A program made the translations under genes and the position numbers. The notes below the pieces were generated by a model. That model had not been told where the DNA came from. It worked only from the letters and a program-made list of their open reading frames with translations, and ran no database searches. This document shows, in pieces, positions 3,133 through 9,942 of a DNA stretch of 45,390 nucleotides (the first letter of the stretch is position 1; every line of letters begins with the position of its first letter). The stretch spans positions 1 to 45,390 of the forward strand of contig CANROP010000001.1 in assembly GCA_947632265.1 (NCBI GenBank), written 5' to 3'. The DNA is from an uncultured Bacilli bacterium (GTDB lineage Bacteria; Bacillota_I; Bacilli_A; RF39; UBA660).

Positions 3133-3170
3133 AAAAAATTAGGGCTACAAACATAAAAGAATGTAGCCCT
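3133..3170 (-). terminator. Rho-independent terminator
   Basis: Stem agggctaca (3141-3149) pairs with tgtagccct (3162-3170). On the minus strand it is followed by AATTTTTT. Confidence 0.6.
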
Positions 3171-3361: not shown

Positions 3362-5905
3362 TTATACTTCAAAATCATCTAAAAAATCATCTATTGTCAT
3401 CATTCTCTTATCTATATTATCTAAAGAAATATTATCTTTTTTTACCTCTTCTATCTCTTCTTTAGGTTTATTAACTATATTATTAGGATTTATAAGTTCA
3501 CATTCTATAAATGCATCAACTATATTTCTCTTAGATAAATTAGAACCTATAGAATATCTATCTAATATTGGTAAATCAGTTATCTTAATAAATTCTAAAT
3601 CTTCTTTTAATTTTAATCCTAATGTATGTTTATTATCTACTACAAAAGATTTTAATATATAGTATGGATTAGTCTTAACATCTCTTACTATTTGTACACC
3701 TTTACGTGCTCTTGATATTCTTTCAAATTCTAATAATTTTACTCTCTTACCAGTATTTTTAGTAGTAATAATAGAAATATATTCTTCACTATCTATTACA
3801 TTTCCACTAGAGACAAAATCATTTTTAAGACTTATTCCTTTTACTCCACTTGCCCTACTTCCCAATATAGGTACTTCATTTATATCATATCTAAGTCCAA
3901 ATCCATTATGAGTTGTTATAAATACATCATTGCCTTTTTTACTTGATATACTTACAACTACATCATCATCTTTTAATTTCATATATGGCATTGGCTTAGT
4001 ATAACGACTAGCTTTTAAATCACTTATTAATGTACGTTTAATCATACCATTCTTTGTAAATACAGTAATATAGTTATCAGTATCAAAATTAACAACAGGT
4101 ATACTATATATTATATTTTCTTCTGGATTAATTTTTATTATATTGCTTATATGTTTACCTAAGTCTTTCCATTTCATATCTGGAATCTCATGTACAGGTA
4201 CAAATAAATAATTACCTATATCTGTAAACATGAGTACTGTATCCATTGTATTTAATTCATATATACCTATTATATAATCTTGATCTTTTAATCCAGTATT
4301 AGTATCTGTTGATGAATAACTTCTCTTTGATACTCTTTTTACATAACCATCTTTAGTTATTACTACTATACAATCTTCTTTAGGTATCATAGCAGATACA
4401 TCTATTTTAATCTCTGTTATTTCATCTTTTATCTCTGTCTTTCTAGGTGTTGCATACTCATCTTTTATATATTTTAACTCTGTCTTCATTACACGTTTTA
4501 ACTTTTCTTCATCAGAAAGTATTCCCTCTAGTATTTGTATTGCTTTTAATAATTTAGCATATTCTTCTTTTAATACATCTACATCTGTATTAGTTAATCT
4601 ATATAGTTGTAAATTAACTATAGCTTCTGCTTGAGCATTTGAAAAATCATAATTTTTTACTAAATTTTCTATAGCATCCGTTTTATTTTTACTAGATCTA
4701 ATAGTCTTTATAACTTCATCTAATATATCTATTGCTTTTATTAAACCTAGTACTATATGCATACGAGCTTTAGCGTGCTCTAAATCAAATTTAGTTCTTC
4801 TAGTTATAACTTCTTTTTGAAATTCGATATAAGCATCTAATATATCAGTTATACCTACTACCATAGGTCTTCTATTTACTATAGCTACCATGTTATATGT
4901 ATAACTTATTTGAAGTTCAGTATTTTTAAATAAATAGTTAAGTATATTATCTACATTTGCATCTTTTTTTAAGTCTATTGCAATTCTAACTTTCTCTTCC
5001 CTATCTGATTCATCTCTTACTTCTTGTATACCATCTATTTTTTTATCGTATATTATATCAGATATTTTTTTAACTAATAAAGCTTTATTAACTTCAAAAG
5101 GTATCTCATGAACTATTATTTGTTTTTTATTTTTATCTTCTACTATTTCATATTTAGATCTTATTACAATTTTACCTCTACCAGTACTTAGAGCATCTTC
5201 TATTTCTTTTTTACCTTCTACAATAGCTCCTGTTGGAAAGTCTGGACCTTTTACTATATCTAGTATTGTTTCTAATCTACAATTTGGACTATCTATTCTC
5301 TTTATTGTAGCATCTATTACTTCTCCTAGATTATGTGGAGGTATTTCAGTTGCATATCCAGCACTTATACCTTTTGATCCATTTACAAGTAAATTTGGAT
5401 ATTTTGCTGGAAGTACTATTGGTTCATATAAAGTATCATCAAAGTTTGGAGCCCATTCTATAGTATCTTTATCTATATCTTTTAAAAGTTCTCCACTTAT
5501 TTTAGATAGACGGGCTTCTGTATAACGCATGGCAGCTGCCCCATCTCCATCCATAGAACCATTATTACCATGCATATCAATATAACATTCGTTTTGTTTC
5601 CACCACTGGCTCATATGAACCATAGCCTCATATATACTTGAATCTCCATGAGGGTGATAGTGACCCATTACATTTCCAACAGCTGTCGCTGATTTTTTAT
5701 GTGCTTTATCTATTGTATTTTTATCTCTAAACATAGCATAAAGTATTCTTCTTTGAACAGGTTTTAATCCATCTCTTACATCCGGTATAGCACGGTTTTG
5801 TATTATATCTTTAGCGTACTGACCGAATCTATCCCCCATTATCTCTTCAAGGGTATAATCATATATTTTCCCTAATACGTTCTCTGTCTCTTCTTGCTTT
5901 TTCAT
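3362..5905 (-). CDS. parC: DNA topoisomerase IV subunit A
   Basis: RAIPDVRDGLKPVQRRILYAM has Q rather than the H seen in GyrA. The active-site region AAMRYTEARL is present, no GyrA-box (QRRGGKG) is seen, and the partner parE lies upstream. The start is set at MKKQEETEN (ATG 5903-5905), 9 nt after GGAGG; the ORF-track start at 5926 is probably too long. Confidence 0.88.
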   Translation of the reverse strand: MKKQEETENVLGKIYDYTLEEIMGDRFGQYAKDIIQNRAIPDVRDGLKPVQRRILYAMFRDKNTIDKAHKKSATAVGNVMGHYHPHGDSSIYEAMVHMSQWWKQNECYIDMHGNNGSMDGDGAAAMRYTEARLSKISGELLKDIDKDTIEWAPNFDDTLYEPIVLPAKYPNLLVNGSKGISAGYATEIPPHNLGEVIDATIKRIDSPNCRLETILDIVKGPDFPTGAIVEGKKEIEDALSTGRGKIVIRSKYEIVEDKNKKQIIVHEIPFEVNKALLVKKISDIIYDKKIDGIQEVRDESDREEKVRIAIDLKKDANVDNILNYLFKNTELQISYTYNMVAIVNRRPMVVGITDILDAYIEFQKEVITRRTKFDLEHAKARMHIVLGLIKAIDILDEVIKTIRSSKNKTDAIENLVKNYDFSNAQAEAIVNLQLYRLTNTDVDVLKEEYAKLLKAIQILEGILSDEEKLKRVMKTELKYIKDEYATPRKTEIKDEITEIKIDVSAMIPKEDCIVVITKDGYVKRVSKRSYSSTDTNTGLKDQDYIIGIYELNTMDTVLMFTDIGNYLFVPVHEIPDMKWKDLGKHISNIIKINPEENIIYSIPVVNFDTDNYITVFTKNGMIKRTLISDLKASRYTKPMPYMKLKDDDVVVSISSKKGNDVFITTHNGFGLRYDINEVPILGSRASGVKGISLKNDFVSSGNVIDSEEYISIITTKNTGKRVKLLEFERISRARKGVQIVRDVKTNPYYILKSFVVDNKHTLGLKLKEDLEFIKITDLPILDRYSIGSNLSKRNIVDAFIECELINPNNIVNKPKEEIEEVKKDNISLDNIDKRMMTIDDFLDDFEV

Positions 5906-5997
5906 AACTACTCGCCTCCATTTCATAACTACCTAAATAGATATGAAAATATTTTTTATAAATAAATCTAAAATTCAAAAATAATTTCATTATCAAA

Positions 5998-6120
5998 ATG
6001 TCGTCAATGTCGCCAATAATGTCGCCAATAATGTCGCCAAAATGTCGTCAATGTCGCCAATAAATGTCGTCAATAATGTCGCCAATAAATGTCGTCAATA
6101 ATGTCGCCAATGTCGCCAAT
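5998..6120. repeat. Array of 11 direct copies of TGTCG(C/T)CAA with A/T spacers of 0-4 nt
   Basis: Read directly: atgtcgtcaa tgtcgccaa taa tgtcgccaa taa tgtcgccaa aa tgtcgtcaa tgtcgccaa taaa tgtcgtcaa taa tgtcgccaa taaa tgtcgtcaa taa tgtcgccaa tgtcgccaa. Unit spacing is 9-13 nt. The array lies between the amidotransferase stop (6136) and the parC start (5905). Confidence 0.9.
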
Positions 6121-6873: not shown

Positions 6874-8784
6874 CTAACTTATTTTATAATTATCTTCAAG
6901 TGAGAACTCTACATTTTCTTCTATCCAATCTTTTCTAGGATCAACTTTATCTCCCATAAGGACACTAACTCTTTTTTCAGCAAGAGCTGCATCTGTTATA
7001 TTTACTTTAATTAAACTTCTCGTTTTAGGATCCATAGTAGTTTCCCATAATTGATTCGCATCCATCTCTCCTAAACCTTTATATCTTTGTGTTTTAGTTT
7101 GTTTACCTTTAAACTTTTCAAGTAGATTTTTTCTATCTTCTTCTGTCCATGCATAATAGCCTTCCTTACCACATTCTATTTTATAAAGTGGTGGCATCGC
7201 TATATAAAGGTGTCCCTGTTCTATTAAAGGTTTCATATATCTATAGAAAAATGTTAAAAGTAATATCTGAATATGTGATCCATCTACATCAGCATCTGTC
7301 ATAATTATTACTTTATCATAATTACTTTCACTTACATCAAAACTAGAGCCTACTCCTGCTCCTATCGCATATATCATAGTATTTATTTCTTCATTTTTAT
7401 ATGCTTCATCTAAAGAAGCTTTTTCTGTATTTAAAACTTTACCTCTTAATGGTAGTATTGCTTGATATTTACGATCCCTACCAGTTTTCGCACTTCCACC
7501 AGCAGAATCTCCCTCTACTAAGAATAGTTCATTTATTTTAGGATTTTTACTTTGAGCTGGTGTTAATTTACCACTAATAGTTCTTTCATTTTTATCTTTT
7601 TTCTTACCATTTCTTGCTTCATCTCTCGCTTTTCTCGCTGCTTCACGTGCATTACGACTTTTTAATATTTTATCTAGTATTGTAGTTGCGATTGCTTTAT
7701 TCTCTTCTAAGAAGAATTGTAATTTTTCAGATACTATACTATCTACTACAGGACGAGCTATAGGTGTACCTAGTTTACCTTTTGTCTGGCCTTCAAATTG
7801 TAATAATTCTTCTGGTATTTTTAAGCTTATTACAGCAGTTAATCCCTCTCTTGTATCTGGACCTTCTAAATTTTTATCTTTAGCTTTAAGATATCCATTA
7901 TTTCTTGCATACTCATTAAATACACGAGTGAGTGCGGTTTTAAATCCAACCTCATGACTTCCGCCATCACTAGTTTTAACGTTATTTACAAATGATACTA
8001 TATTTTCAGCATAAGAATCTGTATATTGGAATGCTACTTTAACATCTATTTTATCTTTAGAGCCACTTATTACCATAGTTTTATGTAATTCATTTTTATC
8101 TTCGTTTATATATTCTACAAATGCTTTTAATCCATCTTCATAACAAAAAGTTTCATGTTTATTATCTTCTTCATCTGTTACTTCTATAGTAAGTCCTTCT
8201 AGTAAGAAAGCACTCTCCTGCATTCTTTCACATATAGTTGTAAACGAAAAATTAGTAGTTGAAAATATCTCATCATCTGGCATAAATCTTACTTTAGTAC
8301 CAGTTTTACTAGTTTTATCTCTTTTAGTTAATGGTACATCAACTTCTCCACCATTTTTAAATCTAATGAAATATTCATACCCATCTCTTTTAATTGTTAC
8401 TTCCATCCATTTAGATAATGCATTTACTACGGATGCTCCAACGCCATGTAGTCCGCCAGATACAGTATAACCACTTGATTCGAATTTACCTCCTGCATGA
8501 AGAACTGTATAAATTACTTCTGGAGTAGTTCTTCCACTTGAATGCATACCAACAGGAACTCCACGTCCTTCATCTTCGACACTTATACTGTGATCTTTAT
8601 GAATTATTATTTTTATTTTATTACCAAAGCCATTGATAACCTCATCTATACTATTATCAACGATTTCCCATACTAAATGATGAAGTCCTCTTTTATCAGT
8701 TGAACCAATATACATTCCTGGTCTTTTTCTAACTGCTTCAAGTCCTTCTAATATTTTTATTGAGCTTTCATCATACTTTACCAT
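6874..8784 (-). CDS. parE: DNA topoisomerase IV subunit B
   Basis: LEGLEAVRKRPGMYIGST is the GHKL ATPase N-terminus. The TOPRIM motifs EGDSAGG and IMTDADVDGSHI are present. It is called ParE rather than GyrB because its partner is ParC-type. Confidence 0.85.
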   Translation of the reverse strand: MVKYDESSIKILEGLEAVRKRPGMYIGSTDKRGLHHLVWEIVDNSIDEVINGFGNKIKIIIHKDHSISVEDEGRGVPVGMHSSGRTTPEVIYTVLHAGGKFESSGYTVSGGLHGVGASVVNALSKWMEVTIKRDGYEYFIRFKNGGEVDVPLTKRDKTSKTGTKVRFMPDDEIFSTTNFSFTTICERMQESAFLLEGLTIEVTDEEDNKHETFCYEDGLKAFVEYINEDKNELHKTMVISGSKDKIDVKVAFQYTDSYAENIVSFVNNVKTSDGGSHEVGFKTALTRVFNEYARNNGYLKAKDKNLEGPDTREGLTAVISLKIPEELLQFEGQTKGKLGTPIARPVVDSIVSEKLQFFLEENKAIATTILDKILKSRNAREAARKARDEARNGKKKDKNERTISGKLTPAQSKNPKINELFLVEGDSAGGSAKTGRDRKYQAILPLRGKVLNTEKASLDEAYKNEEINTMIYAIGAGVGSSFDVSESNYDKVIIMTDADVDGSHIQILLLTFFYRYMKPLIEQGHLYIAMPPLYKIECGKEGYYAWTEEDRKNLLEKFKGKQTKTQRYKGLGEMDANQLWETTMDPKTRSLIKVNITDAALAEKRVSVLMGDKVDPRKDWIEENVEFSLEDNYKIS

Positions 8785-9078: not shown

Positions 9079-9942
9079 ATGGAAAATCTTAAATTTATAC
9101 CGATAAGGTACGATAAAATGTATAAAAAAATATTTATTATTGGAAAAGATAAACGTATACCTAGTCTTTTAATAAAAGAAACATCTGAAGTAGATAGTGA
9201 AATAGAAACATTTATATATCCAGAGATAATAAATTTTCCATATAAAGAAAAAAGCACTATAGTAGACTTGATAGCTAGATTAGAAAACAAAACAATAATT
9301 GGTATAGAATTAAATACAGTTGTAAACAATATGATAATGGAAAGAAATTTCTTCTATATGAACAAAATTGCAGTTGTTTCATCAGATCAAGCAAAAAACT
9401 ATGATGATTTTGAGAAACAAATTCAAGTTAATTTGAATTTTGAAGGTGAGTTTATAGATCCTATAGATCACATAAACTTAATAATAAGAGGAACAGATAA
9501 AATATATCTGGATTCAATGGAAATAATACGTATAAATATTCCATATTTTGTTAAACTGTGTTACAATAAAGATGTAAGCGAATTAAGCATAAAAGAAAGA
9601 TTATTAGGAATGATAGGGTCAGAAGATATAGAATTATCAAAGAAGCTTGCGAAAGGAGATGAAATTTTAGAAATGATACTAAAAAAACAATTAAGATATA
9701 GTCAAGGTAAAAGGTTGGGATTACTTTATGATAAAGATGAGTTAATAAAAGCATCATACGAGAAATCAATGAAAGAAAGGTACGAAAAAGGAAAACTTGA
9801 AGGAAAACTTGAGGGAAAACTTGAGGGAAAAAAAGAAGGAATAAAATCTACTGTAAAAAATTTACTTAAAAAGAATATAGATATAAACATTATATCAGAA
9901 GCTACAGGACTATCAATTAGTGAAATAAATGAGTTAAGATAA
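9079..9942 (+). CDS. Rpn-family / PD-(D/E)XK nuclease-like (transposase_31-like) protein
   Basis: The N-terminal D..FKKIF-like segment, the core VDLIARLENKTIIGIELN (D...E.x pattern) and the C-terminal tail ATGLSISEINEL are typical of this family. It carries an internal (GKLE)x3 repeat. Confidence 0.5.
   Translation: MENLKFIPIRYDKMYKKIFIIGKDKRIPSLLIKETSEVDSEIETFIYPEIINFPYKEKSTIVDLIARLENKTIIGIELNTVVNNMIMERNFFYMNKIAVVSSDQAKNYDDFEKQIQVNLNFEGEFIDPIDHINLIIRGTDKIYLDSMEIIRINIPYFVKLCYNKDVSELSIKERLLGMIGSEDIELSKKLAKGDEILEMILKKQLRYSQGKRLGLLYDKDELIKASYEKSMKERYEKGKLEGKLEGKLEGKKEGIKSTVKNLLKKNIDINIISEATGLSISEINELR

Follow-up and report, generated by a model that had tools for sequence, protein, structure and literature searches.

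Orphaned operator-promoter, probably of a lost Schlafen-GHKL-winged-helix gene, forms the repeat array upstream of parC in an uncultured gut Bacilli bacterium

Why should an essential topoisomerase IV gene be preceded by a dense block of short direct repeats? The question arises upstream of parC in a 45,390-nt stretch of DNA (hereafter, the window) from an uncultured gut Bacilli bacterium whose genome comprises 1.23 Mb in 101 contigs. The window is very AT-rich, with a GC content of about 25%. Three genes on the minus strand define the locus: parE, encoding topoisomerase IV subunit B (6874..8784); a class-I glutamine amidotransferase/peptidase C26 gene (6136..6864), which begins 9 nt after parE and lies between parE and parC; and parC itself, encoding topoisomerase IV subunit A (3362..5905, 847 aa from the ATG at 5905), which was identified by a match to TIGR01061 parC_Gpos. 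The ATG at 5905 is the likely start, with GGAGG in front of it, and the gene caller picked the identical start on a contig of a sister strain. The parE-parC genes are flanked by an AAA_21 (AbiEii-like) ATPase gene with a small partner ORF (555-2370) and by a lone PD-(D/E)XK_2 (Rpn-like) gene (9079-9942), so that the region carries several accessory or defence-type genes.

The array occupied positions 5999..6119 (minus strand), between the stop of the amidotransferase gene and parC, and was defined by pattern matches together with comparison with the sister strain and orthologues. It consisted of eleven direct repeats, all of them exact matches to TGTCGYCAA on the plus strand, starting at 5999, 6008, 6020, 6032, 6043, 6052, 6065, 6077, 6090, 6102 and 6111. 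The whole window contained 13 such matches, compared with 0.12 expected from shuffled sequences, and the eleven repeats reported by the first-pass annotation were thus confirmed. On the parC-sense strand, each unit reads TTGGCGACA (designated G) or TTGACGACA (designated T). The eleven units run G G T G T G T G G G T, and the spacers between them are T-rich and 0-4 nt long. The array lies 94-214 nt upstream of the parC ATG, in agreement with the earlier estimate of about 90-215 nt. The unit-to-unit distances were 9, 12, 12, 11, 9, 13, 12, 13, 12 and 9 bp (mean 11.2), so the proposed spacing of roughly one helical turn held on average but not for individual steps, which were irregular (9-13 bp), with four junctions lacking a spacer. 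Tandem Repeats Finder returned periods of 12, 25 and 44 bp for the array, which indicates that blocks of units were duplicated.

A consensus scan predicted a sigma-70-type promoter at 5989..6016 (minus strand), with a -35 element TTGGCG (6016-6011), a 16-nt spacer and a -10 element GATAAT (5994-5989). The last array units overlapped the predicted -35 element and the spacer region. The interval separating the amidotransferase gene from parC yielded no intrinsic terminator. Interpretation of the array as an RNA leader or riboswitch was ruled out by the absence of RNA structure (fold z = +0.57) and of any Rfam match. Replication-origin iterons, which had also been suggested, were rejected: the array is flanked by parE, the amidotransferase gene and parC instead of by rep or dnaA, and the cumulative GC skew was monotonic over the first 9 kb, array included, with the sole window reversal at 9-10 kb.

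The array had been read as a regulatory element of parC, either as phased sites for an OmpR/PhoB-type regulator or as curved DNA coupling parC expression to supercoiling. The direct orientation of the repeats, their mean period of 11.2 bp, the A/T spacers and the present position 94-214 nt upstream of parC suit such an element, and the genome encodes one OmpR-family regulator (a Trans_reg_C protein, contig C50). However, inspection of 39 related parC loci (ParC 68-85% identical) revealed the array at none of them. At about 30 of these loci parE is joined directly to parC, with the parE stop about 10 nt from the parC ATG, and in the remaining genomes other genes lie upstream of parC. When 200 genomes of the bacterial family were searched by pattern, this genome alone yielded the paired unit. 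Within the genome, the 9-mer occurred 15 times, as the 11 copies in the array and 4 singletons, when about 6 singletons would be expected by our own estimate from base composition; no paired sites were found elsewhere in the 1.23 Mb, which leaves no further sites to make a regulon. The 9-mer is not a dispersed repeat in this genome, and the generic-repeat alternative raised by the first-pass annotation can be set aside. Absence from or variability among close relatives, which that annotation had itself named as evidence against a link with parC, was what the comparison revealed. Moreover, as described below, a whole gene separates the array from parC in the sister strain, and the TTGGCGACA unit is tied to Schlafen-winged-helix genes in unrelated contexts. 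It is thus very improbable that the array is a regulatory element of parC.

The amidotransferase gene is itself patchy, and most species of the genus are without it. In more distant relatives that carry it, the gene overlaps parC and there is no spacer. In one distant group (L060; L262-L267), the amidotransferase is 60-62% identical and its gene overlaps the parC start by 20 nt.

The amidotransferase had a single near-identical relative in the protein collection (96% identity), and the locus of the sister strain was present on four contigs (L258-L261) from 4 samples. Exact-protein look-ups with the amidotransferase, ParE and ParC yielded no strain of the species beyond this one. Identity to the window was 95.7% over the parE-amidotransferase-array segment and 98.9% over the first 1.5 kb of parC. 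The gene order in the sister strain was parE - amidotransferase - array - a 438-aa gene - parC. The sister array comprises 9 units arranged as G G G G T A G T G (A denotes TTAGCGACA) and resembles a 32-bp block present three times, the spacings being 9, 11 and 12 bp. It is followed by TTTTGATAATGAAATT..., which is identical in the window, and the ATG of the 438-aa gene lies about 70 nt beyond its end.

Alignment of the window with sister contig L259 located the difference between the strains precisely. The window matched L259 up to position 3160 and resumed from 4511, and the two matches overlapped by 7 nt, which corresponds to a microhomology of ATAAAAA (parC-sense) at window positions 5953..5959. 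The 1,350 bp absent from the window hold the 438-aa gene and its ribosome-binding site, and the loss of this segment means that the array and promoter are now fused to the parC spacer. The leader before parC (5906..5988, minus strand) is accordingly chimeric by comparison with the sister strain: positions 5960-5988 are the start of the 5' region of the lost gene, whereas positions 5906-5952 are the original parC-upstream spacer, including the GGAGG ribosome-binding site. Deletion is the more parsimonious direction, because insertion would require a pre-existing array that matched the operator of the orthologues and yet lacked the gene. In the sister strain, the flanks of the cassette contain no long direct repeats. 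The array reached parC through deletion of the intervening gene, and the supposed link between the two is not supported.

The product of the 438-aa gene has an N-terminal SLFN_AlbA_2 domain (E = 1.5e-19), a HATPase_c_4/GHKL-like domain (E = 6.5e-12) and a C-terminal winged helix of the MarR/HTH_24 type. The only solved structure found by sequence was PDB 3lmm, a DIP2311-like protein from structural genomics, which matched residues 231-339 in the GHKL-like region; it is an uncharacterised protein with no function or DNA target on record. With this domain composition, the lost gene belongs to the 'HisKinase-HTH' class of prokaryotic Schlafens, reported as 19.2% of prokaryotic Schlafens (Perez Taboada et al., Nat Microbiol 2026, PMC13056530), and corresponds to the 'Schlatpase' supradomain with a C-terminal HTH (bioRxiv 10.64898/2026.05.29.728809). 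Like the published Schlafens, the gene is patchy and lies near defence genes; the present locus differs in that the gene itself is absent from the window. Other Schlafen architectures, namely an Ig-like sensor fusion and a pAgo fusion, have been tested and act in phage defence (PMC13056530; bioRxiv 10.64898/2026.05.29.728809). By full-text term search, PMC13056530 does not mention operators, direct repeats or autoregulation, nor does bioRxiv 10.64898/2026.05.29.728809 mention operators, and neither describes a role for the HTH tail or arrays in cis. Hence the protein class is published, whereas a description of its private, co-varying arrays was not found in those Schlafen papers.

No intact orthologue of the 438-aa gene was found in this genome; the assembly is 94% complete, and an intact copy could therefore lie in the missing part. 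The genome also holds two very divergent paralogues with different C-terminal helices. Directly behind serS on contig C5 (29711-29929, minus strand) lies what is left of a 70%-identical paralogue, a 78-aa N-terminal remnant confirmed by Pfam. One TTTATAGTGACA unit is present upstream of it, in the region extending to about 30010, where an intact relative (L306) has three. The remnant has the appearance of another decayed cassette within this genome.

Homologues of the lost gene were then compared with respect to their upstream regions. Of 401 genomes of the bacterial family, 24 contained the gene, a patchy distribution. Homologues of 78-85% identity occurred in unrelated neighbourhoods, namely between dnaB- and dnaI-like genes, beside Cas6, after RNase J, before a SWIM-domain gene and before the gene for the CCA-adding enzyme. 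Each of them was preceded by T(T/C)GGCGACA x3 at an exact spacing of 11 bp, ending 40-60 nt before the ATG. Among the related loci, three TTGGCGACA units at 11-bp spacing were present at L269, L273/L276, L201 and L283/L284, two TTGGCGACA units with a degenerate one at L270-L272, and three TCGGCGACA units at L281/L287. We extended the comparison to 27 family members from the protein collection and the genomes of the bacterial family, down to 53% identity. Under a strict criterion of three or more tandem units with no more than 1 mismatch each in the 170 nt upstream, 16 of the 27 were positive, and by eye about 25 of the 27 showed three or four units; upstream of one member (L303) no repeats were seen. 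The same strict test applied to long ORFs of the present genome was positive for only 2 of 692, one of which is the present array. The repeats of the homologues were spaced by 11-12 bp, and the last ones abutted or overlapped a TATAAT or extended -10 element and the -35 element (e.g. ...ACGACATGGTATAAT), which is the position expected of a repressor site. In genome G195, the paired motif occurred solely at the promoter of the gene itself.

Since the gene is patchy and occupies many unrelated neighbourhoods, the repeats might instead serve the cassette as attC-like or iteron-like sites for recombination or mobility, through which a single gene moves between intergenic sites; one relative (L273) is indeed flanked by a 66-bp target duplication. 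The array, however, lies on one side of the gene only, and the duplication at L273 consists of target sequence, not of the array. The deletion in the present genome used a 7-bp microhomology outside the array, and there is no recombinase gene nearby. We consider that mobility sites are a very improbable explanation of the array.

The L273 cassette, which lies behind RNase J, has its own history. The 66-bp direct duplication (95% identical, at about 2738-2803 and 4306-4371) comprises the last RNase J codons and the terminator, again with no recombinase nearby, and suggests that this cassette may have been inserted with a long target duplication.

The repeat word differed by subfamily, and each word was paired with another recognition helix in the C-terminal winged helix, giving six classes. 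The words TTGGCGACA and TCGGCGACA occurred with the helix TTKRTIQRNIKEL, TTTCTTACGACA with VNIRTIQRNIK, TTTGTGGTGACA with VNIRTIKRHFK, TTACTAGGAAA with VTSRTIRNHIK, AATAWCCGGCAA and AATA(A/T)CCGGCAA with VGERKIRYNMK, and TTATTGTTGCA with INITTVARNLK. This covariation follows the protein phylogeny, and part of it could reflect the common inheritance of a gene and its promoter. A host factor or RNA polymerase would not switch its word with the cassette. Most simply, the repeats would be read by the winged helix of the protein itself.

This argument bears directly on another explanation, that the repeats serve as promoter elements or bind a host factor (a reiterated -35-like TTGaCg, a UP-like element or sites for a nucleoid protein) and travel with the gene as its promoter. 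Both TTGACGACA and TTGGCGACA contain -35-like hexamers, the scan placed the -35 element within a unit, and the repeats always abut the -10 element. By contrast, the words of other subfamilies, such as TTACTAGGAAA and AATAACCGGCAA, have no resemblance to a -35 element even though their hosts belong to the same bacterial family, and the word of a host factor would not change in step with the winged helix of the cassette. We therefore judge host-factor sites to be decidedly unlikely.

Two further arrangements were observed among the subfamilies. At L201 (50-120) and L283 (70-115), degenerate TTACTAGGAAA-type units lie upstream of the operator of three TTGGCGACA units. As TTACTAGGAAA is the word used by a subfamily of 55-58% identity, the operators of two subfamilies appear to be stacked there, or the cassette appears to have been replaced. 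In the TTTCTTACGACA subfamily (L289-L292), two three-unit clusters about 100 bp apart are found 100-200 nt upstream, and these may be a pair of operators able to loop.

The first-pass annotation had also predicted that the array would be prone to copy-number slippage, and the two strains compared bore this out, with 11 units in the window and 9 in the sister strain. Such variation is one feature of a phase-variable contingency repeat; in this two-strain comparison, however, the units sit upstream of the -10 element as whole operators, and no effect on the -35/-10 spacing was seen. Slippage raises the question of whether the array is a functionless minisatellite that arose in the spacer and never bound anything. 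The copy number and unit order differ between strains that are 96-99% identical, the higher-order periods of 25 and 44 bp correspond to block duplications, and the spacing is irregular, all as a minisatellite would show. Nevertheless, the same 9-bp unit is kept as a strict 3 x 11-bp array at the orthologues in at least 5 other contexts, and analogous arrays accompany almost all members of the gene family; slippage explains the expansion but not the origin of the array. A minisatellite without function is accordingly highly unlikely as an account of the whole.

Taken together, these comparisons led us to conclude, with a probability of roughly 75%, that the array is the orphaned and expanded private operator, together with the promoter, of the lost Schlafen-GHKL-winged-helix gene, which was probably self-repressing. 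The winged helix of the cassette's own product would bind three or four phased units head to tail. When bound, the last units would cover the -35 element and the spacer region and thereby repress the gene's own promoter; autoregulation is here deduced from the position of the repeats and their covariation with the helix. In this species, slippage or unequal exchange would have enlarged the three-unit operator to 9-11 units of irregular spacing, and since the intact sister locus is already expanded, expansion would have preceded the loss of the gene. After deletion of the gene from this genome, the cognate binder would be gone and the array would remain as an orphan relic. The unrepressed orphan promoter would then read into parC alongside read-through from parE, as no terminator was found. 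Against this reading, the spacing of 9-13 bp in the array is irregular compared with the strict 11-12 bp of the three-unit operators, and not all units could be occupied in phase.

The putative operator resembles some known systems in part. Plasmid RepA on iterons and phage lambda CI on OR/OL are autoregulated repressors with reiterated operators. As in those systems, the promoter is overlapped by adjacent sites at which the product of the gene itself would bind, and each variant would have a private specificity. The present case differs in that the putative binder is a large nuclease-ATPase with a tethered winged helix, in that the repeats are head-to-tail direct repeats as opposed to palindromes, and in that no replication origin or phage is involved. 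The pho boxes of OmpR/PhoB-type regulators consist of 7-bp repeats with a 4-bp A/T spacer and have an 11-bp period. The array shares with them a short GC-containing core with an A/T spacer, the direct orientation, a period of about 11 bp and a presumptive winged-helix reader. Unlike pho boxes, it has no regulon and no conservation before parC, and belongs to another gene, and the winged helix concerned is MarR/HTH_24-like. Thus the earlier impression of winged-helix-type direct repeats holds for the look of the units, whereas their assignment to the OmpR/PhoB type does not, the likely binder being the C-terminal winged helix of the lost gene.

The reading as an orphaned operator does away with the attractive but mistaken idea that topoisomerase IV is tuned by an array of repeats. 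It also supplies an order of events for the locus, in which a cassette would have been inserted, its operator expanded, and the gene then lost, fusing a foreign promoter to an essential gene. Schlafen-GHKL-HTH proteins constitute a large class of bacterial Schlafens (19.2% in one published survey), and the matched pairs of repeat word and recognition helix in this family provide a test set for autoregulation or docking by the HTH tail.

Docking was considered as a distinct function of the arrays. They might be private DNA docks that hold oligomers of the Schlafen-GHKL-winged-helix nuclease inactive on the chromosome, a proposal that we regard as speculative and unlikely. The expansion from 3 to 9-11 units would then raise the docking capacity, and a further form of the dock would be the VAKN-repeat linker that the 9-mer encodes in frame in distant homologues. 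In the present genome, the dock would have outlived its protein, and the unrepressed promoter would have been captured by the essential parC.

Matches to the unit beyond the gene family were also surveyed. Scanning metagenomes for three or more tandem units returned more than 120 matches from many habitats, including 14 in viral contigs. Two shuffled-unit controls gave 5 and 2 viral matches; about half of the matches in the scan lay within long ORFs. These matches were not retained as a single family, being mostly generic tandem-repeat background. Conserved non-coding families of three TTGACGACA units at 10-11 bp spacing, with conserved flanks, were seen in higher-GC metagenomic and viral contigs (L143, L180, L193, L197, L205, L209, L211, L226 and L233; L149, L194 and L234; L133, L208 and L242-L246). 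As the ORFs flanking non-coding TTGACGACA x3 arrays in Bacteroidales-like and other contigs share no family, these arrays were likewise set aside; the adjacent ORFs matched MerR/TipAS, Vsr, patatin, 2OG oxygenase or DUF3784, or had no match, and no Schlafen gene was found among the scanned ORFs beside the conserved TTGACGACA x3 arrays.

The 9-mer also occurred inside genes. In the regions read, no upstream arrays were seen in the distant homologues L183, L185 and L187 (human-gut contigs) and L141. These four and L212, which are 24-27% identical to the lost gene product, carry TGTCGCCAA(G/A)AA x3-4 within the gene. The 9-mer is identical to that of the window array but is located on the coding strand, within the ORF, where its in-frame translation is a VAKNVAKNVAKN linker that immediately precedes the winged helix. 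The recognition helix of these homologues reads (S/V)KRT(L/I)ER.
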